Positions 7,154-30,823 are shown, numbered from the stretch's first letter. The stretch: DNA of 32,000 nt from Microcystis aeruginosa NIES-843 (GCF_000010625.1 NC_010296.1:3000001-3032000), one strand, 5' to 3'. Notes: a model not told the origin generated them from the sequence alone. Translations and numbers: made by a program.

Positions 7154-7238
7154 GTAAACAGTAATCAGTGAAAAGACAGTAGGAAACTGGCATTTGATGA
7201 GGCTCACTTAATCCATACTGCACACTTAAAACTCAAAT

Positions 7239-7336
7239 CTGATAACTGATAACTGATAACTGATAACTGATAACTGATAACTGATTACTGATAACTGATT
7301 ACTGATTACTGATTACTGATTACTGATTACTGATTA
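7239..7336. repeat. Heptamer STR array (CTGATAA)6-CTGATTA-CTGATAA-(CTGATTA)6, 14 units
   Basis: Read directly from the sequence. The last unit contains the nadA stop codon (tta at 7334-7336 on the plus strand). Confidence 0.95.
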
Positions 7337-9666: not shown

Positions 9667-9832
9667 TCAGTTATCAGTTATCAGTTATCAGTTATCAGTC
9701 ATAATTCCCCATCTCCCCACAGCCCACAGCCCACAGCCCACACCCCACACCCCACACCCTACACCCCACACCCTACAGCCCACACCCCGCACCCCACACC
9801 CCACACCCTACACCCTACAGCCCACACCCCAC
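9664..9832. repeat. Composite STR: (TCAGTTA)4-5 followed by ~17 heptamers of CCCCACA/GCCCACA/CCCTACA
   Basis: Read directly. The first array begins at the stop codon of the 9343-9666 ORF and is the reverse complement of the CTGATAA family at 7239-7336. The C-rich array is the complement of the GGGGTGT arrays at 11.67 kb and 27.17 kb. Confidence 0.95.
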
Positions 9833-10051
9833 TCCCTGATCTGGAATATTCTGGCGGAAGACCGATCGCAAAGACTTGAAATCTGTTCTAACAATAGTTA
9901 CACTTCTTTAGAATAGATACACTTTTCAAGGGATAATGTAGGTCGGCTAACTCTTGCACTTAACAGTCGAGATTGTTGGGCTTATATTTTCACCCTGAAT
10001 ATAAAAAGCGTCTAAGTGGACACTAAATTGTCAATAGGAGGAGCGTAGTCA

Positions 10052-11633: not shown

Positions 11634-11662
11634 AATTAGGGTATGCTGAAAAAGTTTTTCGT

Positions 11663-11723
11663 GGGGGCAGGGTGTGGGGTGTGGGGTGTGGGGAGAAGGG
11701 AGCAGGGAGTGGGGAGCAGGGAG
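11663..11723. repeat. G-rich STR (GGGGTGT)3 plus GGGAGCA-type units
   Basis: Read directly: gggggcagggtgtggggtgtggggtgtggggagaagggagcagggagtggggagcagggag. Confidence 0.85.
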
Positions 11724-11885
11724 AAACAATTCATAACTTGAGAGTTAATCACACTATTAAAAACGGATTTATCCTAAATCCGGTTATTAAAAACTGATTA
11801 TTTATTCTCCCCTTTTTCTGTGCGTTACTCAAGGGATTTAGTATTAGTATAAAGTTCGATCGAGCTTTACTTTTCACCGAATACT

Positions 11886-14173: not shown

Positions 14174-16232
14174 AACTAAGATTAAAGGAATTTTCAACAC
14201 TCTGTTACAAATTATCCTTGAAAATTGACCTCTCTCACGGGCAAGCCCCAACAGAATAGCCAGTTTTCAAGCCTGAAAAGGATTAGCGAGGCAGCATATC
14301 GGCTTTAAAAAAAGCAAGATTAATCTATTAGGGCTTAAATGTCTATTAAAACTTTATTAAGTTTATATTTGGGCTATTTACCCTGATTTTGGTACTCAAA
14401 TTTATTCCGAGAAATTGAGAAATTTCAGGCAGGGAAGAAATTAGGGGTCTGATAGCAAATCCTGTTTAAAAGGTAGAGGAGATTGGGGAGTGCCGGAGCT
14501 GCGGAGTAGGGGGAAACAATCCATAACTGGGTTTTTAAAGTTGGATTGGGAGTTAATCATGCTATTAAAAGCGGATTTGGTATCATATTGCATAAATTTA
14601 ATCACTTTTAGCGATCGCTTTTATATTTTGGCATAAATGGGCTGCTCCCTCGCCGTTCCCTGTTCCCGAAAACGAAAACTTCGCACCTCACCATTAAGAT
14701 AACTGCTATCAACCTTATATTATAGGTATATAATCAACCTTAACTATACCTTAAAAAGAGAGTAAAAATTGTGTTCAACCAGCTTGATTGGAATCCTGCC
14801 TATTCAATTGAAACCCTAGAACCAAATACGGTATTTTTTCTATCTGAGCGAGAATCAATCTGTTTTCAAGAGCCGCTTTATTATCGTTTAGTCAGATTAA
14901 TCGATGGTCAACGTAATCTTGATGAAATTATTGATATTCTTCAGTTAGAATTTTTACAAAATCAAGAAATTAATCCCAATAATCCTAATTCGTTTGCAGT
15001 TATTATTAACTATAGTCTGGCAATTCAAAAAGCGATTTTTCAGTTATATAAACAAGGGTTTTTGTTAGAAAAAAAAGAATTATTACCGTCTAATTTAGCA
15101 ATTTTATGCCATCATCTTCAGGTTTCTCAATCCCAAGCTTTTGAACGATTAAGCTAAAACGCACTTAAACCACCTAAAATAGAAATAGTAATTTTAGAAA
15201 AATCCTACTTATGCCAGCAAAAGATTTCCTAGACTTAGAAGAAAAGAAAAACTTACAAAAAGCTCTTAAAGAAGAAGAAAGAGCAGAGGTTAGGGAAAGA
15301 ATTTTAATGTTTCTCTTGCTAAACGACGGAAAAACTCAACGAGAAATAGCTGACTTTATTGGCTGTTCACTCAAAACGGTCGCCCCTTGGTGTGTTCACG
15401 GTGATCCTAACAATTTAGAAAGTCTAGAAGATGGGAGAAAAAATGGAAATCATAAAAAAGCCACAGAGGAATATATTAATTTACTATTAAAAATAGTTGA
15501 TGAAGACCCGAAGGAATTTGGATATGAATTCGGGAGATGGACAGCGGCAAGATTAGCAGAGCATCTAGAAAAGGAAACAAGAATTAAACTGAGTGGCTCG
15601 CAAGTGAGAAGAATATTGAGAAGAAAAAAGTATGTGTATATCTGGGCGAAATATAGTCTAGAAGATAAGCAAGACAAGAAATTAAGAAAAGCATTTAAAG
15701 AAAAATTAGATGAATATTTAAGGTTGGCTAAAGAAAAGCCAGAGTCAATCCAGGTATGGTTTTGGGACGGGGCTTTCAAGGTGGCGACGCAGGTTCGCCA
15801 CACAGCCCCTCATGAGTGTGGATTTAGTTTGAGAGTAATAAGAAGGAGAGCTTGGACAAAAAAAGGAAAGCGAAAAAAAGTGAATGGACAAAGAAAAAGA
15901 GGAAGGGTGAATGTGATGGGAGCCTTAAGATATAATGACAAAAAACGAGTCTGTTTTATGATCAAAAAAGGAAATTCAGAAACTTTCCATGAACAATTAA
16001 AGAAACTTCATGAAGAGATTCGTCAAGAATGGATAAACTTGGGAAATCTGCCCGAAGATTTTCGAGAAAAAGGACCGAAAATTATCATCATATTAGACAA
16101 TGCTAGTTATCACAAAAAGAAAGATGTTATTGAGCAGGTGGAAAAAGAGTTGCCCAATATTAGGCTAGAGTTTTTACCAGCTTATAGTCCAGATTACAAC
16201 CTAATAGAATTAGTGTGGCATTCCGCTAAAGA

Positions 16233-17494
16233 GGGAGCATCTCACCTTTGCAATAAGTAGAAATGCTTAATGATCTCAATAAAAAAGTTAAAAAAGGCAA
16301 CCATTTAGATAAGCACAGCGATGACGAAGGACTTGCGGTACATTACCAGATTCCCAACTTGCACCAGTAATTTTAAGACGATGAGCAATTTGTTTAATTT
16401 TTGATTCGACGGAGCCAGAGCCAATGGAAATCCCCTCTGCCTGCAAATAACCATAATTGACAATTCGATGTTTATGCTTGTTTAAATAAGTAATAAAATT
16501 CTCAACTTGCGGCTCTGACCATCCTTCACAACAAGAGATAGCCGCCTCCACTTCCCCCTTCCAGAGAAAACATTTTACCTCCTCAATTCGCTGGAATGAC
16601 CCGCCAACTTTATAGAGGTTTTCGATTAAATGATACCAATCCAATATTTCAATTCTTTCCTGTTTCTCTCCTATCTCACGAAATAAATTCCAGATACCAT
16701 CATGTCCATCTCCTAAACAAATTAAAGGCTTGGCCAAAACTTGAGAATTAACCAAATCTAATAAAGCTGAGTTATCTTGAAAAAAAGCCGCTACCCCCAG
16801 TTGATGAAAACTCACTGCTTTATAATCACGCCAAATTAAGGCTTTTCCCTTGGCAGTTCTTAGTCGTACCTTACCGCCATCTAGGCTCATTTCTTCCACT
16901 TCCACTTCTGGGTTAGACGGTAATTCTTCAAAAGCATAGCGATGTACGAGGCGTTGTTGGGTACTGTGAGAAACAGCAATCCCTGTCAATGATTTGATTT
17001 TCTGCGCCGATTTCTCGTAGGATTCATCGCCACTTAATAGCAAACAGTTCTTCTCTAACATTGGACTCATCTGAGTCCGAGACTTTATTTCTAATTTTTT
17101 CGCTTGTTTTTCTGTAATTGGTAATTCCCCCAAAATACTTTTCACTTTTCTTGTCCGACCAGCTGTTTCTCCTGTGCTTGTTTTGACAAAAAAATACCGA
17201 TTTCTGGGTTGACATACTGAATCATTAAATCTCTGACTGTCTCCTCTATCTCTCCCAAGTTATTAAATTTATTAATTGGGGATTGCTCATAGAGACATTG
17301 CCCTAACTCTTGACATAACTCTTTAATTCTTTTTTCATTTTCTGATAACATTGAATTATTCCTCCCATCGAGAGCTATTCTGAATTGTAAGTTATAACTA
17401 TTATAATCTCATTTCTCTTTGTGATCAAGTTGAAGATTTTCTAGTTGTTGACGGCTATAAGTATTAATACTCATTGCATAAGTGAGATGCTCCC
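16233..17494 (-). mobile_element. 1262-bp IS element nested inside the IS630 transposase gene
   Basis: TIRs are GGGAGCATCTCACCTTTGCAAT (16233-) and its near-perfect inverted copy ending at 17494. An 8-bp target duplication GCTAAAGA lies at 16225-16232 and 17495-17502. Confidence 0.8.
16288..17351 (-). CDS. DDE transposase of the inner IS (ISKra4/ISLre2-like; family tentative), in two frames joined at a T7 run
   Basis: ORFs 17142-17351 (69 aa) and 16288-17145 (285 aa). The second frame is open upstream back to the homopolymer A7 at 17188-17194 (T7 on the coding strand). Motifs LGDGHDGIWN and ILDWYHLIENL are typical of this DDE group. Confidence 0.6.
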
Positions 17495-19595
17495 GCTAAA
17501 GAGTACATAGCTAATCGAGAATTTGAAAATAAAGAAGAACTGGAAAAAGTAGTCAATCAGCTTTTAAATGAAGGGGGATTGATTATTAAATGGAGTAGAA
17601 AACTTAAAAATAAGGGTAATGCTGTCAATGTAACTTAAATGCGTAAAAGCTTACAATCTCTGAAGGTTACAGTTAAAACCCTAGGCTTAATTCCCCAGCA
17701 AGATTTGATCAATATTTTAAATTCCTTGCAAGTTAAAGTCGCAGATGAAGGGGATTTAACAATTATTTTAACCGATAATTATCTTCATCCTGATTTAGAG
17801 AGTATTAATCAACAAGCTTTAGCCTCGCACAAGCCTTGGTTATTAGTTAATCCCCTGGGAAACCTAGCATGGATTGGTCCCTTATTTGATCCCGATAAAA
17901 CTGGTTGTTGGCATTGTTTGGCTCAACGGTTACGAGATAATCGTCCCGTGGAGGAATTTATCATTAGACAGAGAGACAATAAGATTTCTTTAATTTCTCC
18001 TTTAGGGTTTTCTTCAGCGACAATACAGACGGTTTTAAATCTGACGGCTATGGAGGTTTTTAAGTGGATTATTCAAGGTAAAAATCAACGTTTAGAAGGA
18101 ATGCTAATGACTTATGATACTTTAAATTTACAATTTCAAGAGCATATTTTAGTTAAACGTCCGAACTGTCCTAGTTGTGGATATTCTCTAAATAAAACAC
18201 CTTTACCCGTGGTTTTGGGACATCGTAAAAAGGCTTTTACCAGTGATGGGGGACATCGTTTTTGTTCTCCTGAAGAAACCTTAAAAACCTATCAACATCA
18301 TATCGGTCCTGTTACGGGAATTGTGCGAGAATTAAATAAGATACAAGGGAATGCTTTAGTTCATACTTATGTAGCTAAACATCATTTTCGTAGTGTCTTT
18401 GATGATTTAGACAGTTTACGGCAAAATATTGGAGGTAGAAGTGCGGGAAAAGGCCGTACAGATAGTCAAGCAAAAGCAAGTAGATTTTGTGAAGCTATTG
18501 AGCGCTATTCGGGAGTTTTTCAAGGGAATGAAATCAAAGAAGAAGCGAGTTATCAAGAGTTAAAAGATAAAGCTATTCATCCTAACAAATGTATGAATTT
18601 TAGTGAAAAACAATACCAACATCGAGAAGAATGGAATGGGAAGAATCAAGGATGGTTTCAAAAAGTCCCTGAACCTTTTGATGAAACTAGAATCATTGAT
18701 TGGACTCCTGTATGGTCTTTAACTGCTCAAGATTTTAAGTATTTACCGACGGGATATTGTTATTATGGTTATTCTCAATCTGAACCCTTAGATTGTTGGG
18801 CTGATTCTAATGGCTGCGCCGCAGGAAATACGATAGAGGAAGCGATTTTACAAGGATTTATGGAGTTAGTGGAACGAGATTGTGTGGCTTTATGGTGGTA
18901 TAATCAATTAGTTAAACCTTCCGTTAATTTAGAGAGCTTTAATGAGCCATATTTTGAGCAATTAAAGCAATATTATGAGGGGTTAAATCGGGAGCTATGG
19001 GTGTTAGATATTACCAGTGATTTGAATATTCCCTGTTTTGCTGCTATTAGTCCGAGAAAGGAGCGGGAAGTGGAGGACATTTTGTTAGGGTATGGGGCGC
19101 ATTTTGACCCGAAAATTGCTATTAGTCGGGCGTTAACGGAGGTTAATCAAATCTTGCCGAATGTGTTATCTTTTAAGGAAGATGGGACAACGATTTATAA
19201 TTCTTCTGCTGATCCTTTGGCGGTTAAATGGTGGCAAACGGCAAGGTTAAGCAATCAATCTTATTTAGTTCCCGATAGTAAAATAATACCGAAAAAAAGT
19301 AATGATTATTTACAATTAGCCAGTGATGATTTATTAGCGGATGTTAAATTGTGTCAGCGAATTGTTGAGTCAAAGGGGATGGAAATGTTAGTATTAGATC
19401 AGACTCGTCCTGATATTGGTTTAAGGGTGGCTAAAGTCATTGTCCCCGGAATGCGTCATATGTGGAAGCGTTTAGGGGCAGGAAGATTATATGATGTTCC
19501 TGTTAGCATGGGATGGTTAAAAGAGACTTTGACGGAAGATGAATTAAATCCTTTTCCCATGTGGATGTAATGCTTTGGAATAGGGGAGCTTATCA

Positions 19596-19687
19596 CTGAT
19601 CAGTAAAAGGTGCATCACCGAAGTAACACACCTTAAATAGTGTTGGGTTCCGTACCTCAATCTAACCGATAAGAGAGGCGATCGCAC
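19596..19687 (-). repeat. Island repeat copy A (two-hairpin element ending in HIP1)
   Basis: Sequence ctgatcagtAAAAGGTGCATcaccgaagtaACACACCTTaaatagtGTTGGGTtccgtacctcaATCTAACcgataagagagGCGATCGCac. It abuts the mvl stop codon (19688-19690). Confidence 0.8.
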
Positions 19688-20032
19688 TTAGAAAGTGTAC
19701 TTGATTTGAATAACACTCATGACACCTTCAACAATGGTTCGCCACTGTCCAGTAAATTCTGCACCATAAGATGCTGCAATTTGCGGACCTAATTTTTGTG
19801 CTTCATCGTTGCTCCAGAGAGGTCCAGCTAAAACATCAGTTTTAAATTCATGAATTCCAGTATTTTCCACCTGTAGTTCTACTTCTACTACACTCATTGC
19901 ACTTTCAACTACGGTTGTCCACTGACCAGTAAAGTTTCCTTGATGAGCAGCTGCAATTTTCGGACCTACTTGTTGTGCTTCAGCGTTACTCCAGAGGGGG
20001 CCAGCAGGGATATTAACTTTGTAACTTGCCAT
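19688..20032 (-). CDS. mvl: Mannan/oligomannose-binding lectin MVL (two tandem 54-aa domains)
   Basis: Using the internal ATG at 20032 gives a 114-aa protein: MASYKVNIPAGPLWSNAEAQQVGPKIAAAHQGNFTGQWTTVVESAMSVVEVELQVENTGIHEFKTDVLAGPLWSNDEAQKLGPQIAASYGAEFTGQWRTIVEGVMSVIQIKYTF. From memory this matches the Microcystis viridis lectin MVL. The internal duplication GPLWSN-EAQ-GP-IAA...FTGQW is visible. The 34 extra upstream codons in the track ORF are unlikely to be real. Confidence 0.9.
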   Translation of the reverse strand: MASYKVNIPAGPLWSNAEAQQVGPKIAAAHQGNFTGQWTTVVESAMSVVEVELQVENTGIHEFKTDVLAGPLWSNDEAQKLGPQIAASYGAEFTGQWRTIVEGVMSVIQIKYTF

Positions 20033-20071
20033 AATAGATAATGTCCTTTGAGACTTTTGTTGATTTTGTAT

Positions 20072-20357
20072 CCTCAAGACGATATCAAAAATCCTTTTCT
20101 GAATTTTTTGAGTTAGCCATAATGCCTTAAGCAAAATGTCTTGTCTTTTGGGTTAAAAGTGATTGGTTCAATCACCTTTGATACCAGAATAAGTTTTATT
20201 TTTGGTAATGGCAATCTCTAAAATTAATACTTTTCTAATAGGTTTTTTCGAGCAGAATATTAACTTTTTATGAGATTTATATTAGATTTATATTAGATTC
20301 AAAGGGTCACTTTATGGTATAATTGCGTAATCTCTTAAGTAGAACAAATGAATTAAT
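20072..20357 (-). promoter_or_regulatory. Conserved upstream module (promoter plus long leader) of mvl; paralogous copy at 26831-27118
   Basis: About 290 bp are nearly identical between the two loci. The shared region includes 2.5-3 tandem copies of ATATTAGATTT(A) and the hairpin AAAAGTGATTggttcAATCACCTTT. Confidence 0.6.
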
Positions 20358-20374
20358 CAATCAAATTATAGAGA

Positions 20375-20580
20375 TTGAGTCAAAGGGGATGGAAATGTTA
20401 GTATTAGATCAGACTCGTCCTGATATTGGTTTAAGGGTGGCTAAAGTCATTGTCCCCGGAATGCGTCATATGTGGAAGCGTTTAGGGACAGGAAGATTGT
20501 ATGATGTTCCTGTTAGCATGGGATGGTTAAAAGAGACTTTGACGGAAGATGAATTAAATCCTTTTCCCATGTGGATGTAA
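20375..20580 (+). pseudogene. Detached duplicate of the last 206 bp of the heterocyclase gene
   Basis: Identical to 19365-19570 apart from 2 substitutions, and it ends at the same TAA. The 85-aa track ORF (20323-20580) is this fragment plus unrelated leader sequence. Confidence 0.85.
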
Positions 20581-20614
20581 CCCTTGTTCATGGTCAATTG
20601 TTGATGATTTTAAG

Positions 20615-20914
20615 TTACTTGGTGAAGATTTCGAGTTTAACTTTCATTCCCGTTTTATCTAAAAGACTGAGTAATTTATCAACAGTAAAACGGCTAATTT
20701 CTCCATTCATTAAATCACTAATTTTCGGTTGTGTTTCCTCGAAAAAAGTGGCGGCTTCTTGCTGTGTCCATCTTTTTTCTTGGATAAAAGACCGCAAGGT
20801 TAACATCAAATCGGCTCTAATTTTTAAGTTAGTTGCTTCTTCACTGTTAAATCCTAAATCTTCAAAGATGTTATCGCTACCAAAAGTGATCTCAATAGGG
20901 TTAGATTGTGTCAT
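20615..20914 (-). CDS. higA: XRE-family HTH antitoxin (HigA-like)
   Basis: 99 aa. The HTH region reads RWTQQEAATFFEETQPKISDLMNGEISRFTVDKLLSLL. It lies immediately downstream (3-nt gap) of the toxin gene, in the reversed toxin-first order typical of HigBA. Confidence 0.75.
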   Translation of the reverse strand: MTQSNPIEITFGSDNIFEDLGFNSEEATNLKIRADLMLTLRSFIQEKRWTQQEAATFFEETQPKISDLMNGEISRFTVDKLLSLLDKTGMKVKLEIFTK

Positions 20915-20916
20915 GG

Positions 20917-21261
20917 TTATCCCTCCTGTAATTGTTGTCTAAATTGAATCATTTGTTGATAACATTGTTGTCCAAATTCAATTTCTTTTTTCGAGGTTTT
21001 CTGTGTTTTTTTACCAAAAGCATGAAGGACATAAATCGCTTCTTTAAACCTTGCTACATAAAAGATTCTGTAGGTTTCTCCTGTCCAAATTCTAATTTCT
21101 TCTGTTCCTTGACCAATAATGGGAATGGGTTTAAAATCATTGGGTTTCTCTCCTTGTTGAATAGCTCTCAGTCGAAAACCTGCTTTACGCTTTGCGTCTT
21201 CAGGAAAATCTCTAATATCTTCCCTTGACGTCCCAATCCAGTAAATGGGTTTATCTCCCAT
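20917..21261 (-). CDS. higB: RelE/HigB-superfamily toxin (phage Gp49-like)
   Basis: 114 aa. Signature stretches are IRDFPEDAKRKAGFRLRAIQQGEKPNDFKP, EIRIWTGETYRIFYVARFKEAIYVLHAFGKKTQKTSKKEIE, typical of the Gp49/HigB-like toxin family. Confidence 0.7.
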   Translation of the reverse strand: MGDKPIYWIGTSREDIRDFPEDAKRKAGFRLRAIQQGEKPNDFKPIPIIGQGTEEIRIWTGETYRIFYVARFKEAIYVLHAFGKKTQKTSKKEIEFGQQCYQQMIQFRQQLQEG

Positions 21262-21350
21262 GTTGGGGTTAATGATTAAGGTTGATACCTAATTTAGTAT
21301 AACAGGATCATCAGTTTGTCAATTGTTCGTTAGTTGACAAGCAAGATGAT

Positions 21351-21515
21351 GATCATTTTAGTTTAACTGAATCTAAGTAAAGTGTATCAGGGCAAATATC
21401 TCGTTCATGAGGCCATAAGCAAACTGATTCCTGATAGGTAAAAGGTATGTCAGCGAAGTAACACACCTTTATTAGTGTTGGTTTTCGTTGCTTCAATCTA
21501 ATCTAGAAGAGCGGC
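21351..21515 (-). repeat. Island repeat copy B (core 21431-21515, plus extension with the TTAACTGAATCT motif at 21363-21374)
   Basis: Sequence ctgataggtAAAAGGTATGTcagcgaagtaACACACCTTTattagtGTTGGTTttcgttgcttcaATCTAATctagaagagcggc. It lies 67 nt downstream of the vapC stop. Confidence 0.75.
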
Positions 21516-21582
21516 TGGATCATTGGGAGCTATTCCTTCATATTGATCTAAGATCAATAATATTTTCATTTGTTGAGTTACA

Positions 21583-21966
21583 CTAAATAAGCGCAATCGA
21601 ATATTGACTGAAAATTGAATCACTTGTAATGATAGGGAGATTTTCAGCCATAGATTGAGCAATAATAATGCGATCAAAAGGATCTCTGTGGTGAAAAGGT
21701 AGAGAAGCATTAATTTTTAGATGCTCTAGTTCAAGATTTATTAAAACAATCCTACTTTCGTTCACTTCTTTCTCAATAAACTCTTCATAGGAAGGAACTA
21801 ACCTTAACTTTCCTAAATTATATTTAATAGACATTTCCCAAAGACTGGCGATACTAAGATAACTAAAATTGTTCTCATCTTCAATTAAATCTTTGAGAGC
21901 ATTGCTTAATCTAGGATCGTCATTAACAAACCAAAGAAAAATATGTGTGTCCAATAAAAAAGTCAT
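21583..21966 (-). CDS. vapC: PIN-domain ribonuclease toxin VapC
   Basis: 127 aa. It reads LLDTHIFLWF... with conserved acidic residues (D6, E44 region, DPFDRIIIAQS, ITSD). It overlaps the upstream antitoxin by 4 nt. Confidence 0.85.
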   Translation of the reverse strand: MTFLLDTHIFLWFVNDDPRLSNALKDLIEDENNFSYLSIASLWEMSIKYNLGKLRLVPSYEEFIEKEVNESRIVLINLELEHLKINASLPFHHRDPFDRIIIAQSMAENLPIITSDSIFSQYSIALI

Positions 21967-22181
21967 TCCCTGTAATTGTGAAAGTCTTCAAGAGGTTCAT
22001 CAAAGTCATCGCTCATCCATACTTTTCCCTTAGCACTTCCTCGTTTTAAGGGTCGTTTGATGGGGGAAATTTTGGCTACTGGCTCGTCGCCTTGCATAAT
22101 AACAATTTCTTCTCCGTTAATTGCCAAATCGAGAAGTTTTGAGAGATCGGATTTAGCTTGAGCTATATCTAATTTAGTCAT
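21963..22181 (-). CDS. Phd/YefM-type antitoxin (VapB partner)
   Basis: 72 aa: MTKLDIAQAKSDLSKLLDLAINGEEIVIMQGDEPVAKISP... with an acidic C-terminal tail DDFDEPLEDF. It is translationally coupled to vapC. Confidence 0.8.
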   Translation of the reverse strand: MTKLDIAQAKSDLSKLLDLAINGEEIVIMQGDEPVAKISPIKRPLKRGSAKGKVWMSDDFDEPLEDFHNYRE

Positions 22182-22197
22182 AATGTTAAATCTCTAT

Positions 22198-22419
22198 TTA
22201 AGTTTTCAAAAAATCTTGCAAATGTTCTTCGTCATCAGCTACGATGGTAATCATTCCTTGACATAGTCCAGGGCCCAGGCGTTGGCGCAGTATGGGTATT
22301 GGCCCGATTAATTGGGCAATTGGACGATTGTTGTCGGTGATTAACAATTCTTCCCCCAGTTTGAGATTGTCAATCAGTTCGGGGAGTTTAGCCTGGGCTT
22401 CTTTGAGAGAGATGATCAT
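22198..22419 (-). CDS. Second Phd/YefM-like antitoxin, with no toxin of its own
   Basis: 73 aa: MIISLKEAQAKLPELIDNLKLGEELLITDNNRPIAQLIGP... with tail ADDEEHLQDF. Its architecture matches the adjacent antitoxin, 16 nt upstream of it. Confidence 0.7.
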   Translation of the reverse strand: MIISLKEAQAKLPELIDNLKLGEELLITDNNRPIAQLIGPIPILRQRLGPGLCQGMITIVADDEEHLQDFLKT

Positions 22420-22461
22420 GGATGTTGGGTTCTATCTAACTCATGGTGATAACGCTACAAT

Positions 22462-22526
22462 TTTAACTGAATCTCAGCAAGGAATAGATAAAATACGGTT
22501 GGGTTGAACGATAGTGAAACCCAACC
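22462..22526 (-). repeat. Island repeat copy F (short variant: TTAACTGAATCT motif plus GGTTGGGT...ACCCAACC hairpin only)
   Basis: Sequence tttTAACTGAATCTcagcaaggaatagataaaatacGGTTGGGTtgaacgatagtgaaACCCAACC. It lies directly next to the GC-richer IS110 sequence. Confidence 0.6.
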
Positions 22527-22529
22527 TTG

Positions 22530-22774
22530 TATCTTGAGAAGTAGGCAACCCGTCCCAACCTAGGTAAAAAATACCGCTTTGTAGCTTGGGTGCCTATATT
22601 CTGAAAAAGGGCGTGGACATCCAGTTCAACCGAGGTGCTTGACACCGTTGGGTAGCCACCGGAGCCACGCCGTCATCCCGATGAGACAAGCTCGAACAAT
22701 CGCTGGAGGATTAACCTCGTATTCGCAAGGACGAGTTACCAAAGGGACAAAATAACTTAACCCCAGCATAAACG
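22530..22774 (+). ncRNA. Candidate IS110 bridge/guide RNA region (5' non-coding end of the element)
   Basis: A 245-nt non-coding leader lies upstream of the recombinase. It shows several stem-forming segments (e.g. ggagccacgccgtcatcccgatgagacaagctcg, ctcgtattcgcaaggacgag). IS110-group elements are known to encode a structured RNA here. This call rests on position only and no fold was computed. Confidence 0.25.
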
Positions 22775-23711
<937 letters not shown>

Positions 23712-23879
23712 TCCAGTTTTCCGAACAATTTCATCGCTGACAAAACGGATGACTGGTGCCGTTACTTTGTCTTGCCTATTTGGGGTACAAAAGATTTTCT
23801 TTATTCCCCTTGACTTTTAAGACAATCGCTACACTCTCACGTTAAGGTTAAGTACGAAGATGAATCCAATTTCTAGGCC

Positions 23880-24027
23880 GATCATTCCTCAATTCTAACT
23901 GATCTAAGCAGAAAATAAATAAGCTCTCCTGATGACTGATAGAGAAAAGGTATGTCACCGCAGTAACACACCTTTATTAGTGTTGGGTTTCGTTGCTTCA
24001 ACCCAACTACAAGAGCGGTGATCGCAC
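23880..24027 (-). repeat. Island repeat copy C (core 23936-24027, plus extension with TCTAACTGATCT motif)
   Basis: Sequence ctgatagagAAAAGGTATGTcaccgcagtaACACACCTTTattagtGTTGGGTttcgttgcttcaACCCAACtacaagagcggtGATCGCac. It ends 2 nt from the stop codon at 24030. Confidence 0.8.
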
Positions 24028-24029
24028 TA

Positions 24030-24302
24030 TTATTGAGGAATTAATTTAATTAAACTTCTTAAGGTAGCATTAACGGATTCCGAATTAGGAAAATACTTTT
24101 TAACATCAGGATCAAGAATAATTACATCATTTTGCGCTGGAAAATGTTCAACCGTTTTTGTTCCATCTTCATGATGAATAGTAACGCTATGACCTTCCCG
24201 ATACTGTTGGTAATATTTTCCGCAAACAGGATTTTTAAGTTGACTTAAATCATATTCTTCTCGCAAGTCATCTTCTAATTCATCTTGGATTTTCTCGTTC
24301 AT
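24030..24302 (-). CDS. Putative antitoxin partner of BrnT (BrnA-position gene)
   Basis: 90 aa with an acidic N-terminus. It overlaps the brnT 3' end by 23 nt in a toxin-first operon. Similarity to the canonical BrnA at 29146 is weak, so the family assignment is tentative. Confidence 0.5.
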   Translation of the reverse strand: MNEKIQDELEDDLREEYDLSQLKNPVCGKYYQQYREGHSVTIHHEDGTKTVEHFPAQNDVIILDPDVKKYFPNSESVNATLRSLIKLIPQ

Positions 24303-24567
24303 AATATCTCCTTTCTTTGGGTGTAACTAATCTTGCACTAATTAAACGAATTTTATGATCACGATCCGTATAAGAAACAAATAGAAATTTACTTTGATCT
24401 GATAAACCTATTATAAGATAGCGATTCTCTCCTGTAGAATGGTCAGGATCATCGAAATTTACAGCTAAGGGATCATCAAATACGGTGGATGCTTCTTCAA
24501 AAGAAATGTTATGTTTTCTTTGATTTATTTTTGCTTTCTGTTTATCCCATTCAAATGCTAGTTCCAA
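24280..24567 (-). CDS. brnT: BrnT-family (DUF497) ribonuclease toxin
   Basis: 95 aa: FEWDKQKAKINQRKHNISFEEASTVFDDPLAV...RYLIIGLS...VSYTDRDHKIRLISARLVTPKERRYYE. This is the typical BrnT signature. Confidence 0.8.
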   Translation of the reverse strand: MELAFEWDKQKAKINQRKHNISFEEASTVFDDPLAVNFDDPDHSTGENRYLIIGLSDQSKFLFVSYTDRDHKIRLISARLVTPKERRYYERENPR

Positions 24568-24695
24568 ATCATTGCCACTTTGCCAACTGAAATATCCCGC
24601 ATTGTAGCATATCCTGATGGCGGAATAACAATTTTTCCTGTGCGATCGCGTCTTCCCAAAGTTTGATTAATAGAGAGATATATAAGCGATCGCCG

Positions 24696-24788
24696 CTGAT
24701 AGTAAAAGGTATGTCACAGCAGTAACACACCTTTATTATTGTTGGGTTTCGTTGCCTCAACCCAATCGAGAAGAAGAAGCGATCGCAC
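24696..24788 (-). repeat. Island repeat copy D
   Basis: Sequence ctgatagtAAAAGGTATGTcacagcagtaACACACCTTTattattGTTGGGTttcgttgcctcaACCCAATcgagaagaagaaGCGATCGCac. It lies 37 nt downstream of the orf227 stop. Confidence 0.8.
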
Positions 24789-24825
24789 TGAATTAAGATA
24801 GCTGATGAGTTGATGAGATTGAGTT

Positions 24826-25509
24826 TTATTGCCTAGTTAAAACCCCATTTCCACGTGAATCAAATTTCAAAGTGTAAGTATATCCCATCAGCATAGCCCA
24901 ATTTCCAGTATCGAATACAACAGGATCTCCGATTTCCTCTTGTCCATTTGATCTAACAAGATCGTATGATCCTGCCTTTATGGATAGAGTCGTCTGCGGG
25001 GAACAAAGCACTGAATATCCCCAAGCAATCCATTTCACTCCCATACCAAACCCTACATTTACTGTATATTGTTCAGAATCATATTCGGGAATATGCCAAC
25101 CTTGTTCATCGTGCTGAAGCTCCATGTATTTGTTCAATGACAAGGAAAAATTATCGTTATCCCTTGAGTATGGATGATATGACTGGTTAGGGCTTATATC
25201 GCCTTTTTTGAAAACGGAAGCCATCCAATAAAGGGTTAAATCTTTATTGAAATTAATCATGACGTTTGTATCAACAGTTTGTTGTCCTGCGACTCTTCTG
25301 ACACCATTAGCAATAAACTCTGCTGGTGAAAAAGTCGCTACCAGTTCGATCCCTTGAACATAATCAGTTGTTATCTCTACGATAGTAACAGGTCCTCCCG
25401 TAGCTGGGGTTGCTAATATAGGCCGGAAAAACTCATCCGCATTTTCCAGTTGTGTTTTGGTAATCTCAAAAGGATGCTTTATTATTCCTATAGGTGGTCT
25501 CTTTTCCAT
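24826..25509 (-). CDS. Hypothetical protein orf227 (no recognisable family)
   Basis: 227-aa ORF with a GGAG SD-like sequence upstream. No signal peptide or TM segment is seen. The composition is rich in beta-strand-like alternating patterns (e.g. VNVGFGMGVKWIAWGYSV, YTYTLKFDSRGNG). Confidence 0.65.
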   Translation of the reverse strand: MEKRPPIGIIKHPFEITKTQLENADEFFRPILATPATGGPVTIVEITTDYVQGIELVATFSPAEFIANGVRRVAGQQTVDTNVMINFNKDLTLYWMASVFKKGDISPNQSYHPYSRDNDNFSLSLNKYMELQHDEQGWHIPEYDSEQYTVNVGFGMGVKWIAWGYSVLCSPQTTLSIKAGSYDLVRSNGQEEIGDPVVFDTGNWAMLMGYTYTLKFDSRGNGVLTRQ

Positions 25510-25547
25510 GGAAACAACTCCAATTATAATTTTGATTTTGACAGTAA

Positions 25548-25638
25548 GGGTCTATTAAGGTGTGTCACCGCAGTAACACACCTTAAATAGTGTCGGTTTT
25601 CGTTGCTTTAACCTAGCCTGAAATATTGGCGATCTCAC
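25548..25638 (-). repeat. Island repeat copy E (most diverged)
   Basis: Sequence tctaTTAAGGTGTGTcaccgcagtaACACACCTTAAatagtgtcGGTTttcgttgctttAACCtagcctgaaatattgGCGATCTCac. It lies 17 nt downstream of the orf365 stop. Confidence 0.7.
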
Positions 25639-25655
25639 CGCCCCAATAGAGATTG

Positions 25656-26753
25656 CTAGGAGTTTTTAAATAGAAGCTTTGCTCCAGCTACTAAAAGTTG
25701 TTTGATCTTATCTGCACTTTGAGATCCCGAATATGTGAAGTTAACTGTTTTTCCACCCCCAGTCTGGCTAGTAATCTTAAACTCAACTCCAGTTAATACA
25801 AAGATTCCAAAAGCGGCTGTTAGTGCTGTTTTTACGGTAAGCGTCCCTGCCAAAAACGTATTAGCTTCATCCTCAAACGTACTTGTCCATGTAACGCTAA
25901 TTACTTGATCGTCTTGCGTTTCTCCGAGAGAGCTAAAACCGCTTGATAGGAGATTTGCCTGTTCTTGGTTTTTGGCTGAATGCCATAGATCTGTCAGTGA
26001 CGCTAACAATAATTTATGACTATCAATTAAATTGTCAACGAAATTTAAAGGTGCAGTTAGAAGTTCTTGACTAGGTTTCCCCGGCGAAACCTGAAACTCT
26101 CCTGATGAGGTTAAGATGACAGTGGCCTCACGCCCTTTAAAATCTTTGAGTTCAATAACGGCAGCATCATTAGCAACCTCAGTCCAACTCGCTAGTTCAT
26201 TTTCGCCATAATCCCCCGTTGTTACATAGAATGCCAATTTTGGACTTAAAGTTCTTCTGTCATTAGGACTAGGAGACCAACTCATACCGATGAAACCATT
26301 ATCAGTTTGGATTCCAAAGGACATACTACTATACCATTTACAGTCTTCATTTGCGCTTTGGTCAAAAGCATTAGACTTCAGGGCAATCATATTTTCAGGA
26401 GCAGGTGATTTAATTTGGCTCATGGTAGGAGCTTTTTTTCCTCGGCAGTCCTCCGTCACCGTTACGTAGTCTATCTCCCAAGTCTCTTGTAGTTCTATAT
26501 TGTTACTGACGAAGGCATCAATTTTAATACCTAATCCAACAGCTTTATTGCTTGATCCTCCACCTGCAATATACTGCACTGGGATAGTAAACGTATTCGT
26601 CGCTGGCGAGTTAGGATCAACATCCAAATTAATTTTGGAGTTGGCGAAAACATTAGGATTTCCTTTAAGCTCGTCTGGAGGTTGCAAGAAAGCCCAAAAA
26701 GTTTTTGTTTGTTTGCTCTGATTGACTAAATAGATCGTGTACTCAGCAGCCAT
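25656..26753 (-). CDS. Hypothetical protein orf365 (no recognisable family)
   Basis: 365-aa ORF with a strong SD (AAGGAG) 6 nt upstream. The N-terminus reads MAAEYTIYLVNQSKQTKTFWAFLQPP... No signal peptide is seen. One moderately hydrophobic C-terminal stretch is present (TALTAAFGIFVLTGV). It shares its upstream module with mvl. Confidence 0.7.
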   Translation of the reverse strand: MAAEYTIYLVNQSKQTKTFWAFLQPPDELKGNPNVFANSKINLDVDPNSPATNTFTIPVQYIAGGGSSNKAVGLGIKIDAFVSNNIELQETWEIDYVTVTEDCRGKKAPTMSQIKSPAPENMIALKSNAFDQSANEDCKWYSSMSFGIQTDNGFIGMSWSPSPNDRRTLSPKLAFYVTTGDYGENELASWTEVANDAAVIELKDFKGREATVILTSSGEFQVSPGKPSQELLTAPLNFVDNLIDSHKLLLASLTDLWHSAKNQEQANLLSSGFSSLGETQDDQVISVTWTSTFEDEANTFLAGTLTVKTALTAAFGIFVLTGVEFKITSQTGGGKTVNFTYSGSQSADKIKQLLVAGAKLLFKNS

Positions 26754-26830
26754 GATTGATCTCCTTATTTATTGAGTAAATACCGAATTCGATTTTGAAC
26801 AAACAATAAGTTTGTCTTCCATACGTACAC

Positions 26831-27118
26831 CCTCAAGACATTCTCAAAAATCTATTCGTGAAATTTTCGAGTTAGCCATAGTGCCTTAAGCAAAATGCCT
26901 TGTCTTTGGGGTTAAAAGTGATTTGTTTAATCACCTTTGATACCAGAATAAGTTTTATTTTGAGTAATGGCAATCTCTAAAGTTAATACTTTTCTAATAG
27001 GTTTTTTTGAGTAGAATATTAACTTTTATATTAGATTTATATTAGATTTATATTAGATTCAAAGGGTCACTTTATGGTATGACTACCTCATCCCTGAAAG
27101 TAGAACTAATGAATTAAT
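26831..27118 (-). promoter_or_regulatory. Conserved upstream module of orf365 (paralogue of the mvl upstream module)
   Basis: Near-identical to 20072-20357, with 3 copies of the ATATTAGATTTA unit and the same AAAAGTGATT...AATCACCTTT hairpin. Confidence 0.6.
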
Positions 27119-27165
27119 TGGGCATCTGAAATCCTCAAAACCCTTTTACTCTCTGATTTGAAAGA

Positions 27166-27204
27166 GGGTGTGGGGTGTGGGGTGTGGGGTGTGGGGTGTG
27201 GGGA
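27166..27204. repeat. (GGGGTGT)5-6 tandem repeat
   Basis: Read directly: gggtgtggggtgtggggtgtggggtgtggggtgtgggga. Confidence 0.95.
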
Positions 27205-27424
27205 AGGAAACCTCTTTCATCTGTGGGGGTGAAAATTTTTTCATCGGGACTGATTTGTAGAGTGTCAGGAGATGAAAAGAAGGCAGCAAAAAAGCGATCG
27301 CTTATCCCTCAAGGAAAACACCTGCCCTAAGTAAGGAGATGCTACCACCGGATGATGAGTATAACCTTTCAATTAGTTCTGGCTTTACTTTCCCGTGGGC
27401 AAGTGATTTTACAAGGAGAAAACC

Positions 27425-27640: not shown

Positions 27641-27664
27641 CTAAACTTTGACAAGAAAAAATTA

Positions 27665-27851
27665 GGTTCTTCGTTACTTGGTATGATTCGATATGGGGGC
27701 ATAAATCGACTAAATCCTTATCTGGTAAGAGATTTAATTGATTAGTTCGCTCTAGATCAAAAACAATTGACAAAAATCGCCAAATGCTTTTCTACATAAG
27801 GGTTACATCCCTTATATCCCCCGTCCATTGCATAACACAAACCGAAGAGCC
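27665..27851. mobile_element. 187-bp MITE-like element, copy 2
   Basis: See copy 1 at 1352-1538. TIRs are GGTTCTTCG...CGAAGAGCC. Confidence 0.65.
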
Positions 27852-27925
27852 AAAAATTAAAAAGCGATCGCTATTCCTCAGAACAACACAGCGATCGCCT
27901 AACTTTTAACTATCACAAGCAACAT

Positions 27926-29145
27926 TAGAACTCTTGCAAATTAATTATATGTTATAATGATGGGTTAACTAATTTTCCCCAAAAAATTAGTTAACCAGTA
28001 CATTCGTCCTGAATGAAAACTTGAAGTTTAACTTTTAACTCAAAACTCTTTAGATATGCTTTAATTTGGTTATCAAAACCTCTTTATTTAAGCGGCACAA
28101 ACTATCTCAATTTTTATAATTGAGAATAAATTCTCCTTGACTTGATTAATCTTTAGGCAACTTTTAAGAAGCTGCTATACCTATCCCTAACTCACCGTTA
28201 TAAATAGCCGCCAACAAGTTAACTCTTAAACTATATCTTCGACGACGATTCCGATATTTACAGGATAAGATTTTAAAGATTTTGAGTTTCCTATTTATAG
28301 GTTCAATGATAATCCTTTCTTTGGCTAAAGCCTTGTTATACTCTTTTTCTAACTCTGTTAATTTTCTATTTTTCGATTTCTTTTTCGGTGTATAACTATT
28401 ACTATGGTATGCAGCTATTCCCTGATAACCACTGTCTTCTATGCTGGTAGTTAAAGGATGAAAACGAACTCGACTTTTTTTAAATAAACTAAAATCATGA
28501 CCTCTACCTTTCCCACAAAAGACACAGATAATTTCCTCGGTAGTTTGATCAGCTACTAATTGGGATTTTAAAGTATGATAACCTCTTTTACCCCCCAAAA
28601 AATCTTTCTGTTTCTTTTTGGGGCGTTCAATGGGAGTTTCCGTTACATCCATTACCGTTACGACCGGTATCTCTGCTTGATTGAGTAAAGCTTTTTTTCC
28701 TTTTAAACGGAAGTTTCCCGATTGTAAAAGCATTTTTTCCGTCTTATTTACAATCCGACATATAGTTGATTCTGATAGTTCCCAGCTTGTACCAATGTGA
28801 AAATATGTTCTATATTCTCGCCAATATTCTAACGTTACTAAAACTTGTTCTTCTATAGATAGTTTAGGTTTCGGTCCCCTTTTAGATGGTGAATTAGAGT
28901 CGGCTTCAACACTTTTTACTGATTCTACCATCTTTCTATAGGTTTGTTTATACACACCGAAACGGCGTTTGAATTGTTCATCTGATAAGTTTTGATAATC
29001 CATAATTTTGCTAATAAACATAGCAAAATTATAGATGATTTCCTGACCTAAGATCACATTTTATTCTTTTTTCCACTTCAATCTAAGAATTGAGAAAAAA
29101 GCAAAAACTTATATTATACCATAAAAAAATTATGCAAGAGGTCTA
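27926..29145 (-). mobile_element. IS4/IS5-superfamily insertion sequence (1220 bp)
   Basis: TIRs are TAGAACTCTTGCA (27926-27938) and TGCAAGAGGTCTA (29133-29145). A single transposase ORF lies inside. A perfect 14-bp-stem hairpin at 27963-27996 follows the transposase stop. The right end abuts the brnA stop codon at 29146. Confidence 0.75.
28164..29057 (-). CDS. DDE transposase (IS4/IS5 superfamily)
   Basis: 297-aa ORF. The probable true start is MDYQNLSDEQFKRRFG at 29003. The N-terminal HTH-like region is followed by DDE-type blocks (VTVMDVTETPIERP, HTLKSQLVAD, IEDSGYQGI, AKERIIIEPINRKLKIFKIL). Confidence 0.75.
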   Translation of the reverse strand: MILGQEIIYNFAMFISKIMDYQNLSDEQFKRRFGVYKQTYRKMVESVKSVEADSNSPSKRGPKPKLSIEEQVLVTLEYWREYRTYFHIGTSWELSESTICRIVNKTEKMLLQSGNFRLKGKKALLNQAEIPVVTVMDVTETPIERPKKKQKDFLGGKRGYHTLKSQLVADQTTEEIICVFCGKGRGHDFSLFKKSRVRFHPLTTSIEDSGYQGIAAYHSNSYTPKKKSKNRKLTELEKEYNKALAKERIIIEPINRKLKIFKILSCKYRNRRRRYSLRVNLLAAIYNGELGIGIAAS

Positions 29146-29427
29146 TTATTGGAGGGCTGATAATTCTTCCCGAAGAATACGGCGTAAATCGGACTGAGTG
29201 AGCGATCGCTCAGAAGGAGATTGGATATATTGTTTTAAAGCCTCATTAATTAGGGTTTGATAACCCATTCCTGCGGTTTCAGCCTGTTCTCGAAAATAAG
29301 CTAGAATCTCATCATCTAGATAAATGGTAATGCGTGTTTTTCCCTGAGAGGAAATGAGCGCCCCTCGTTTTCCTTTAGAAAAATCATATTCCTTTCTCAT
29401 AAGTTTTTCTCTCTTGTTTTGTAGCAC
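29146..29427 (-). CDS. brnA: BrnA antitoxin (RHH/CopG-like)
   Basis: The signature EYDFSKGKRG...KTRITIYLDDEILAYFREQAETAGMGYQTLINEALKQYI is a typical BrnA. The likely start is MRKEYDF at 29400. Confidence 0.8.
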   Translation of the reverse strand: MLQNKREKLMRKEYDFSKGKRGALISSQGKTRITIYLDDEILAYFREQAETAGMGYQTLINEALKQYIQSPSERSLTQSDLRRILREELSALQ

Positions 29428-29652: not shown

Positions 29653-30823
29653 ATTAGGGGTCGAGAAGGTCGTCACCGACCTCCCCTCCCATTCAGAACC
29701 GTGCGTGATACTTTCGCATCACACGGCTCCTAGTTTGACTGTTCCCTTGTTAAGGATACAGCTTGACTTCTTTTGGTTGTCATTGTATTATCTATACTAA
29801 CTTCTAATGGTGTTAGCGTAGATGATTTTGGGCTTCCATCAGATGCCGATTTATCATCGTGACAGTGGCGGTGTAGTAATTGAAGGTTCTTGTATTCATC
29901 CTTTCCGCCTAAGCTTAGAGGGTGAATGTGGTCAACTTCAATTAAATCCGATGGGGTGAAATACTGCCCACATCGGCTACACTTGCCTTGTTGCTTTTTG
30001 AGTAGTTTGGCTACTCTTGTCGGTGTGTCGATTGCTTGTCCTCGTCTGGTCGCCCAGTAAGTCCAATTTCCGTCATAAGGTGAGGCGTCGGCGCGTACTA
30101 GGGTATGTCTGACAATTGGTGTCCAATTATGGAAACATAATTGATGACCGTCTTTGGTCTTAAATAACCAAGATTCGTGTCTTTCTTTCCCATTGCTGAG
30201 TTTAACTGTATCCGGTCTAAAATAATTTCTCAGCTTTTCGTAGTTCGCTTTACCGCATCTTGATACTGTCCATGCCCTTAACATTAACCAGGTTGTATTG
30301 TCTAGTTTATTGAAGGTATCCATAGATACTACTCCTGAGTAGTAGTTAGCCCAACCTCTAATGATTGGGTTTAGTCGACTAATCAGGGCTGATTGAGGTG
30401 CTGTTTTGTGTTTTTTGATTACACCTTTAATCGCTTCTGTGTGGGTTTTAACTGCTTTTTGGCTGGGTTTGATGTGGGTTTTGTGACCAATTAATCGTTT
30501 TGCCCCATCTTTCCCAGATTTGTATTTTCCTACTGGATATTGCCTGATATTGAATCCTAGAAAGTCAAAACCGGGTTCTTCCATTTTCCCATTGTATTCA
30601 ATAGGTTTGAGTGTGTGACACACTCTGGTTTTTTCTGGTTTAAGTTCTAATCCTATCGGTTTTAACCATTCGGAAATGGCAGTTTTGCACTGTTCAATGA
30701 TTTCGAGTGATGGGGAAATCACTACAAAGTCATCGGCGTATCTTATGAGAACAGCTTGATTAGTATCTTTCTTTTTGGGAAATAACGTTTCAATTAGTCT
30801 CGCCATTCCATCCAGTGCGATGT

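Follow-up and report, generated by a model that had tools for sequence, protein, structure and literature searches.

A low-copy operon-end repeat, apparently private to Microcystis, in a hypervariable island with an integron-like array of modules

Co-oriented gene cassettes are a feature of integrons and of clusters of attC sites lacking an integron-integrase (CALINs), for which we use published definitions, with attC carrying the motifs RYYYAAC (R′′) and GTTRRRY (R′) at the outer ends of an imperfect palindrome of 57–141 nt (PMC4889954). Other routes to variable gene content have also been described: replacement islands are exchanged via homologous recombination (PMC4033161), and deletion between highly iterated palindrome (HIP1) sites and repeat-driven plasticity in Microcystis are on record (PMC2779907 and its reference 21). 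The plasticity of Microcystis genomes is well known, but its units and rules are poorly defined. Here, we describe a 32 kb stretch of the M. aeruginosa NIES-843 genome (the window, to which all positions refer) in which minus-strand gene modules are closed by copies of a ~100-nt repeat, termed REP. From sequence comparison, REP appears to be a Microcystis-private, low-copy, array-forming operon-end repeat located in a hypervariable island with a conserved expression site (element P). Searches of the literature on Microcystis integrons and toxin–antitoxin islands, and for the literal hairpin sequence, returned no prior description of REP.

Five full copies of REP, all in the same orientation, were recovered by a direct-repeat search (one family of five members starting at 19589, 21424, 23929, 24688 and 25539), by alignment and by an nhmmer profile built from the five, which scores 94–108 bits per copy. 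The most conserved part, the hairpin-1 pattern AAGGT-N3-TCA-N4-AGTAACACACCTT (plus strand), has five matches compared with 0.00 expected in shuffled sequences. Every REP lies to the left (3′) of a minus-strand gene and is itself read on the minus strand. REP A (19587–19697; 103 bits) directly follows the mvl stop codon, with a TAA/GTGCGATCGCC junction, between the convergent mvl and YcaO genes. REP B (21423–21530) follows vapC and is a variant without HIP1 in which hairpin 2 is degenerate; it is near-identical at the same vapC-to-higB junction of loci L004, L010, L011, L031 and L039. REP C (23928–24036) follows the brnA-like gene, has both hairpins intact and gives a sense RNA fold with z = −4.0. 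REP D (24688–24796) follows orf227 upstream of brnTA, and REP E (25540–25647), the most divergent copy, is located between orf365 and orf227, with a tail that lacks the U-run. The gaps between stop codon and REP are 0, 67, 2, 37 and 17 nt for A–E and match the list of open reading frames (ORFs).

A preliminary description, made from the sequence alone, had proposed a co-oriented array whose modules are closed at their 3′ ends by five copies of one repeat, with these same stop-to-repeat distances and with no copy in 14 kb of core genome in the window. All of this is borne out, the profile finding no further REP anywhere in the window (1–19.5 kb and 25.7–32 kb are empty). Its consensus, with two hairpins and a terminal HIP1, holds for some copies only: HIP1 is perfect in A and D and not in the others, and hairpin 2 is intact in C and D and degenerate elsewhere. 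A sixth element, F, described as a short variant at 22462–22526, is rejected as a REP copy; the nhmmer profile does not detect it and the common part is limited to the hairpin GTTGGGTT-N12-AACCCAAC, as in hairpin 2 of REP C. F is instead a solitary hairpin resembling hairpin 2 (22489–22527, strand not assigned). The module gene names given there agree with Pfam, which identifies mvl, encoding a mannan-binding lectin (19688–20032; PF12151), higB (Gp49) with higA (HTH_37; 20615–21261), a phd-phd-vapC module of two Phd antitoxins and a PIN toxin (21583–22419) and brnT with a 90-aa partner (24030–24567), all on the minus strand; orf365 and orf227 (24826–26753, minus strand) have no Pfam match.

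The anatomy of REP is based on 60 distinct core variants and on 59 distinct copies with flanks. On the transcript strand, the first half reads stop – (A)GTGCGATCGCC-N2-TCTT(C/G)T(A/C)G – (G/A)TTGGGTT – GAGGCAACGA – AACCCAAC – A, and the second half continues with a 6- or 11-nt spacer – AAGGTGTGTTAC – UGCG/UUCG – GTGACA(C/T)ACCTT – TTAC(C)TATCAG. The HIP1-bearing 5′ unit of ~25 nt usually begins 0–10 nt after the stop codon and is tandemly doubled in some copies. Conservation is strongest in the centre (CAACGAAACCCAACA – spacer – AAGGTGTGTTAC); over the 60 variants, neither this core nor the 5′ arm of hairpin 1 changes. Hairpin 1 has a 12-bp stem capped mainly by the loops cUGCGg and cUUCGg and followed by UUUU (UUUUAC). 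Its unchanging 5′ arm is G/U-rich and its 3′ arm is A/C-rich, with ~9 variable sites that mostly show wobble-preserving transitions. On the sense strand 98.8% of cells are paired and all one-sided changes are GC↔GU or UA↔UG. Fifteen hairpin-1 variants comprise 146 Watson–Crick, 29 G·U and five mismatched pairs when read as sense RNA, compared with 146, two and 32, respectively, as antisense RNA. The folding energies are likewise asymmetric (−13 to −21 kcal/mol sense versus −6 to −15 kcal/mol antisense), and whole-REP sense folds reach z scores of −4 to −5. Such variation is the pattern that is expected if pairing of the sense RNA is selected, and this strand asymmetry of one-sided changes is the sole structural evidence for REP. 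Hairpin 2, in contrast, loses sense pairing through frequent G>A changes in its 5′ arm (77.9% of cells paired) and has essentially no stability in most variants; it is regarded as decaying rather than functional.

Two kinds of copy serve as internal controls for a terminator. In REP E the hairpin is followed by AAUAGACCC rather than by a U-run and the ATG of orf227 is 31 nt away; D02-type copies lack both the U-run and an upstream co-oriented gene. As read from these sequences, both losses agree with a terminator function. No match to REP or P was obtained in Rfam at the gathering score or at E ≤ 5.

Two further features of REP were observed. Two independent variants, one with loop CGCA and the other with loop TAAA, have hairpin 1 exactly inverted, loop and wobble positions included (L007:615–455 and two other metagenome copies, and one further copy with loop TAAA), which resembles hairpin-mediated minute inversions. 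In many strains, although not in the window, the HIP1 palindrome of the REP after brnA is split (GCGAT/…/CGC) by a ~24-nt insert (GCCTACGGCACTGCATAGCAGCA or a close variant), as in L004:3720–3564, L005, L010:4562–4722, L011 and L030–L039. A similar split HIP1 is found elsewhere in L001 (~3290–3330), and the insert may be a tiny HIP1-targeting insertion.

REP is rare and clustered. An exact-pattern scan of one genome per species (185,579 species) returned ten stretches, of which nine are in Microcystis assemblies; the tenth, a 3.8 kb contig filed under a metagenome-assembled genome of Flavobacteriaceae, carries the same Microcystis sequences. Most stretches contain 2–3 matches per 8 kb, as for a repeat that is clustered rather than dispersed. 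The complete 4.9 Mb M. ichthyoblabe genome contains a single stretch, and exact matches number at most five per genome in 1–2 loci. Since the scan pattern is satisfied by ~85% of the known variants (estimated from hairpin-1 variant counts), the copy number is put at roughly 2–8 per genome. A metagenome scan with a 16-base pattern gave 120 loci; this pattern is too short, and ~80 of the 120 were chance matches that were removed with the nhmmer profile, leaving ~40 genuine loci, all with Microcystis-like genes. Phage, plasmid and IMG/VR collections contained no REP copy. REP thus appears to be specific to Microcystis, low in copy number and clustered in one island.

In total, 163 full copies were collected over ~80 related loci, and all copies are co-oriented within their own locus. 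The number of upstream contexts is 22 for the first 39 loci and rises to 36 when the metagenome loci are included, with at least 30 different upstream genes. The stop codon lies within 10 nt of the first HIP1-like unit in ~18 of the ~25 contexts with an identifiable ORF and abuts it in at least eight. The native C-terminus of MVL (…IKYTF) is intact ahead of the junction in REP A. REP is also found behind solitary toxin–antitoxin pairs at other chromosomal sites, namely DUF433/DUF5615 beside recQ and DUF4160/DUF2442 (L001, L007 and L009).

As seen from contigs encoding the same MVL, orf227 or BrnT proteins, the island occupies one chromosomal site in many Microcystis genomes, extending from a kinase/amidohydrolase flank to the YcaO gene near psbEFLJ. 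Its left flank consists of a 1929-aa Ser/Thr kinase, a 330-aa gene, an amidohydrolase, a second brnTA pair and a 71-aa gene. These are followed by P, a payload X with its REP, brnTA with its REP, optional modules (TacA/GNAT, inverted HepT/MNT, phd-phd-vapC and higBA) and the right flank, which comprises the 765-aa ThiF-YcaO gene, rubredoxin, ycf48 and psbEFLJ. The window is 99.6–99.9% identical to M. viridis NIES-102 (AP019314.1), except for an IS110-family element and a single further indel. At least 12 alternative payloads are found between P and the first REP. They include orf365 with orf227, three HBL-like genes, an Evf-like gene, three genes of which one is PixA-like, a trio with an Exo_endo_phos protein, a phage tail-collar-domain protein and several sets without a Pfam family. 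A further payload, in L031 (1413–3695), encodes a PatG-type protease and a Nif11-type precursor peptide; these genes are cyanobactin-like and would fit the neighbouring YcaO gene.

P is ~270 nt long, is 85–90% conserved and lies ahead of every variable payload; it was seen in the window and in L003, L004, L006, L008, L010 and L030–L039. The window contains two copies on the minus strand, one heading the mvl module (20072–20338) and a second, 90% identical copy (P′; 26831–27098) heading the main array upstream of orf365. On the array strand P carries promoter motifs (−35 TTGCCA, 17 nt, −10 TATTCT) and an invariant hairpin, AAAGGTGATTG-AAC-CAATCACTTTT, that lies near the putative start, is followed by UUUU and may be an attenuator or a 5′ stabilizer. 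The opposite strand has an extended −10 motif (TGGTATAAT) facing the conserved 71-aa gene. The 3′ boundary of P is sharp at …GTCTTGAGGGTGTA, beyond which the leader and the ribosome-binding site are those of the individual payload. An attI-like half-site at this end (GAGGGTGTAC, weakly resembling AAGGTGTGTTAC) was considered and rejected, as in no case does the sequence that follows P go on to resemble the 3′ half of REP.

Gene content changes at REP between strains, as had been suspected. The window and seven other strains are homologous across brnTA and REP D up to 24787–24796, and the gene upstream of this point is a different one in each strain. L004 has an additional 2 kb module between two REPs. 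In L039 the HepT/MNT module follows phd-phd-vapC rather than preceding it, and a vapC-REP-brnTA junction in L030 reverses the usual order. In L021 brnTA is missing and a hybrid REP is present. This hybrid is identical from HIP1 onward to the REP preceding phd in L011 and shares ~50 nt of identity with REP D, which places the crossover in the 5′ half of REP, outside hairpin 1. REP interiors are mosaic, such that internal blocks can differ even among copies that share both the upstream gene and the downstream module. Polymorphisms inside REP show only a weak association with either flank (adjusted mutual information of at most 0.3); the association with the upstream flank falls from 5′ to 3′ and that with the downstream flank rises, without a step along REP.

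The most telling trace of how the array changes is that of the mvl module. In L010 the YcaO gene is joined straight to higA, whereas in the window [REP A-mvl-P] has the full YcaO gene on one side and, on the other, a 211-nt copy of the 3′ end of that gene at 98% identity (19365–19575 and 20375–20585, the duplicate also on the plus strand). The identities of this duplication and of the two P copies (98 and 90%, respectively) fit single-crossover (Campbell-type) integration of another strain's allele via YcaO homology, in which case the duplicated 3′ end would mark the junction of two tandemly joined arrays. The junction of the YcaO fragment with P is also present in L011, L025, L030 and L032.

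A plausible starting point for the array is found outside Microcystis. In Leptolyngbya sp. Heron Island J (L160, 755–5410), homologues of orf365 and orf227 (49 and 56% identical) are directly followed by a convergent YcaO gene that is 66% identical to that of the window, and both REP and P are absent from this locus. The pair, which is thus conserved in distant bacteria, is also adjacent in Paludibacterium (L161, 4001–5909; 45 and 44% identical). The arrangement in Leptolyngbya suggests that the orf365–orf227 pair and YcaO are functionally linked; because the trio is found there without REP or P, it is probably the ancestral content of the site. In Microcystis, this site would then have gained P, REPs and toxin–antitoxin modules, with the original pair replaced in many strains. 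Since orf365 and orf227 lack REP outside Microcystis, REP can evidently be acquired by pre-existing genes.

The explanation that we favour, and to which we give about an even chance of being right, combines a terminator-like RNA function with repeat-mediated homologous recombination. Hairpin 1 would end or insulate transcripts between independently regulated modules, namely the P-driven payload and the autoregulated toxin–antitoxin pairs; its strand-specific conservation, UNCG loops, trailing UUUU and position at module ends fit an intrinsic terminator or a 3′-end stabilizer. REPs are direct repeats that are ~80–95% identical, with identical stretches of 25–50 nt, and could therefore also act as portable homology. 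Direct repeats with identical stretches of this length suffice as substrates for RecA-type recombination. Recombination between two REPs would delete a module or loop it out as a circle, with all copies staying co-oriented, and single-crossover (Campbell-type) or double-crossover events after DNA uptake would add or swap modules. The outcome would be an integron-like array without an integrase.

Several observations weigh against this explanation. No compensatory (two-sided) change was found at any pair of the REP hairpins, and formal covariation support is therefore nil. The variation of hairpin 2 runs opposite to that of hairpin 1, with better pairing on the antisense strand (56 sense versus 24 antisense mismatches among distinct variants). 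A consensus terminator scan flagged no REP hairpin, because only four U residues follow the stem. Homologous recombination, moreover, leaves unexplained why the stop codons of many unrelated ORFs lie within a few bases of REP and how a new module first acquires one, orf365 and orf227 being without REP in Leptolyngbya and Paludibacterium.

A dedicated recombination or insertion mechanism is kept as a less likely alternative because homologous recombination alone explains neither the acquisition of REP by pre-existing genes nor the abutment of stop codons. A resemblance to sedentary chromosomal integrons or CALINs had been raised in the preliminary description; that the region is one of these, with canonical attC sites, is scarcely credible. 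Module size, toxin–antitoxin content and co-orientation fit, the co-oriented modules do differ in their presence at the repeat, and GTTGGGT and ACCCAAC match GTTRRRY and RYYYAAC. However, these arms are inverted in order relative to the loop, are only 10 nt apart and form a hairpin that is degenerate in most copies; a motif scan finds no RYYYAAC…GTTRRRY pair at any REP and a window total of two per strand, which is the chance level. The caveat already attached to the integron proposal, that the repeats are not canonical attC sites, was therefore correct. No intI was found in the window or the related loci. More broadly, Pfam searches of all sizeable ORFs in the window detected no tyrosine or serine recombinase (PF00589 or resolvase) and none is present among ~250 annotated neighbours in more than 15 other loci of ~16–20 kb each; recombination enzymes in the vicinity are limited to DDE transposases, a group II intron protein and the IS110-family element. 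This last element had been counted as an integron-like trait, but is incidental, as it is absent from the sister strain NIES-102. On sequence grounds, the REP array is thus not an integron or CALIN. Of the other possibilities raised at the outset, a portable terminator gains support from the strand asymmetry of hairpin 1, its UNCG loops, the UUUU and the operon-end position, and a cassette-shuffling system is supported too; a genome-wide repetitive extragenic palindrome/bacterial interspersed mosaic element (REP/BIME) is not, with only ~2–8 copies per genome.

REP might instead be the site of a dedicated site-specific recombinase that is encoded elsewhere, making the array a functional integron analogue, in which P would stand for the Pc/attI expression site and the core site would be hairpin 1, an imperfect palindrome of the form 12-4-12 or 11-6-11. 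We consider this possible but rather unlikely. The repeats are co-oriented, low-copy, clustered and at cassette ends; stop codons abut them as in integron cassettes; more than 12 unrelated payloads lie between the sharp P boundary and REP; and module order is permuted. Hairpin 1, of which one arm is invariant and the other variable, a trait of dif-type sites, has been inverted independently twice, and the integrase of real CALINs may be absent or distant (PMC4889954). Nevertheless, no recombinase was found in the 32 kb window or among the ~250 neighbours, REP interiors are mosaic without a single switch point and the mvl module was joined via 211 nt of gene homology rather than via REP. The role of hairpin 1 as a recombinase core is further down-weighted because the one mapped crossover, that of L021, lies 5′ of it. 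A related and unlikely idea is that REP and P together form a Microcystis-specific platform for gene capture and expression, analogous to an integron and mechanistically unrelated to it, in which an unrecognized recombinase or an RNA- or hairpin-directed activity could place ORFs precisely between …GTCTTGAGGGTGTA and TAA/GTGCGATCGC. If true, the bloom-former would have an exchangeable position for lectins and putative toxins (MVL, HBL-like, Evf-like and PixA-like) that is stabilized by toxin–antitoxin cassettes.

That REP is a small non-autonomous mobile element inserting at gene 3′ ends, similar to MITEs (miniature transposable elements with inverted repeats) or to repeats mobilized by REP-associated tyrosine transposases (RAYTs), seems to us decidedly improbable. 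It would account for orf365 and orf227 being adjacent without REP in Leptolyngbya and Paludibacterium and each having one in Microcystis, for the REPs behind solitary toxin–antitoxin modules (L001, L007 and L009) and for the two REPs without an intervening gene in L007. The ends of REP (AGTGCGATCGC… and …CTATCAG) are, however, not inverted repeats and the flanks show no target-site duplication; no RAYT or Y1 transposase gene was seen near any REP in the loci examined and no pair of empty and filled sites differing by REP alone was found. Microcystis MITEs (MaeMITEs) of 176–429 bp are present in 20–240 copies (PMC2779907), compared with ~2–8 REPs per genome; REP was set apart from MaeMITEa–h by size and copy number, not by sequence. 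Being low-copy and clustered, REP does not behave as a genome-wide REP/BIME or MITE. It could also be functionless, a junction sequence copied passively as tandem duplications and deletions followed one another in a recombination hotspot. Other junction sequences are duplicated too (P, the 211-nt YcaO fragment and the flank of D04), hairpin 2 is decaying and compensatory changes are lacking. This account is quite unlikely given the invariant core and hairpin-1 5′ arm in 60 variants, a 3′ arm whose ~9 variable sites are mostly wobble-preserving and the loss of the U-run exactly where termination would be unwanted or irrelevant.

The ThiF-YcaO ('heterocyclase') gene (17639–19570, plus strand) forms the fixed right-hand border of the island. 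Its intact 765-aa form in other strains has an N-terminal DUF4423-like winged helix; in the window the gene is disrupted, since the N-terminal piece (14771–15157) has been split off by insertion sequence (IS) elements and is separated from the rest by a DDE_3 transposase gene (15211–16260) and a weakly transposase-like UPF0236 ORF (16288–17145). The IS110-family element (22528–23828, plus strand), whose transposase is frameshifted into two frames (233 and 151 aa), is inserted exactly at the base of the F hairpin (GGTTGGGTT…AACCCAACC) without an evident target duplication. It is absent from the NIES-102, L010, L004 and L021 loci, and its insertion appears to be recent because it is missing from the 99.6–99.9% identical NIES-102 locus. 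A tRNA scan found no tRNA genes.

Several side observations concern individual genes and repeats. orf365 (25656–26753) has 87 homologues at 40–50% identity in cyanobacteria, proteobacteria and myxobacteria, some with PF27136. Its AlphaFold2 model is confident (pLDDT 85.8) and mostly β, with one long helix; Foldseek gave no meaningful match in the PDB and a sequence search against the PDB gave none. A dispersed repeat of ~100–200 nt, 89–90% identical, occurs at 1346–1545 and 27659–27858 and also in L009 (1677–1774) and may be a MITE. Intergenic 7-nt tandem runs, (ACTGATA)n and (CCCCACA)n/(GGGGTGT)n, are present at 7203–7335, 9694–9840, 11655–11736 and 27165–27218, one of them just outside P′. 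A group II intron domain (Rfam RF00029, 59 bits; 29653–30806) abuts an ORF with maturase, HNH and partial reverse-transcriptase domains, beside a second BrnA-like antitoxin gene (29146–29427) and a DDE_Tnp_4 transposase gene (28164–29057).

The locus offers a concrete and testable case of genome plasticity, in which the gain, loss and reordering of single modules take place at a private repeat, at one site in many strains. A conserved promoter would drive at least 12 alternative payloads, including a known lectin and several toxin-like proteins, which could matter for grazing, colony formation or phage defence. Purely homologous recombination at this site would mean that arrays resembling integrons can form with no integrase, whereas a site-specific mechanism would make the locus a new cassette system.

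Among known systems, phage 'morons' (promoter–ORF–terminator units) resemble P-payload-REP, which is likewise a self-contained expression unit, in which unrelated ORFs are framed by a conserved promoter/leader and a hairpin at the 3′ end; unlike morons, it is chromosomal and confined to one locus, REP having been found in no phage collection searched. The pdif modules of Acinetobacter plasmids are also small, often encode toxin–antitoxin pairs and are bounded by short imperfect palindromes, but pdif sites alternate in orientation and match the XerC/D consensus, whereas REPs are direct repeats with one mapped crossover outside the palindrome. By inspection, REP has no similarity to the dif consensus. 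REP/BIME, enterobacterial repetitive intergenic consensus (ERIC) and Correia-type repeats are short palindromic elements at gene 3′ ends that can serve as terminators, mRNA stabilizers or recombination substrates; these families have tens to hundreds of dispersed copies, in contrast to the ~2–8 found here, nearly all in one island and one orientation. With integron arrays and CALINs (e.g. those with Vibrio cholerae repeats, VCRs, in Vibrio) the locus shares co-oriented modules of 0.7–2 kb, a structured repeat of ~100 nt at or near the stop codon, interspersed toxin–antitoxin cassettes, a promoter heading the array and strain differences by whole cassettes. It differs in that REP lacks the R′′-L′′/L′-R′ geometry of attC, no integron integrase is nearby, the repeats are mosaic with scattered crossovers, most modules have their own promoters and one junction was formed via 211 nt of gene homology. 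Replacement and additive flexible islands and the 'minimal mobile elements' of Neisseria likewise have a fixed site with conserved flanks at which homologous recombination following DNA uptake swaps alternative gene sets (PMC4033161). Unlike in those islands, the homology here lies inside the island, in a dedicated repeat behind every module and in a promoter element that is shared, and therefore single modules, and not the whole island alone, change.

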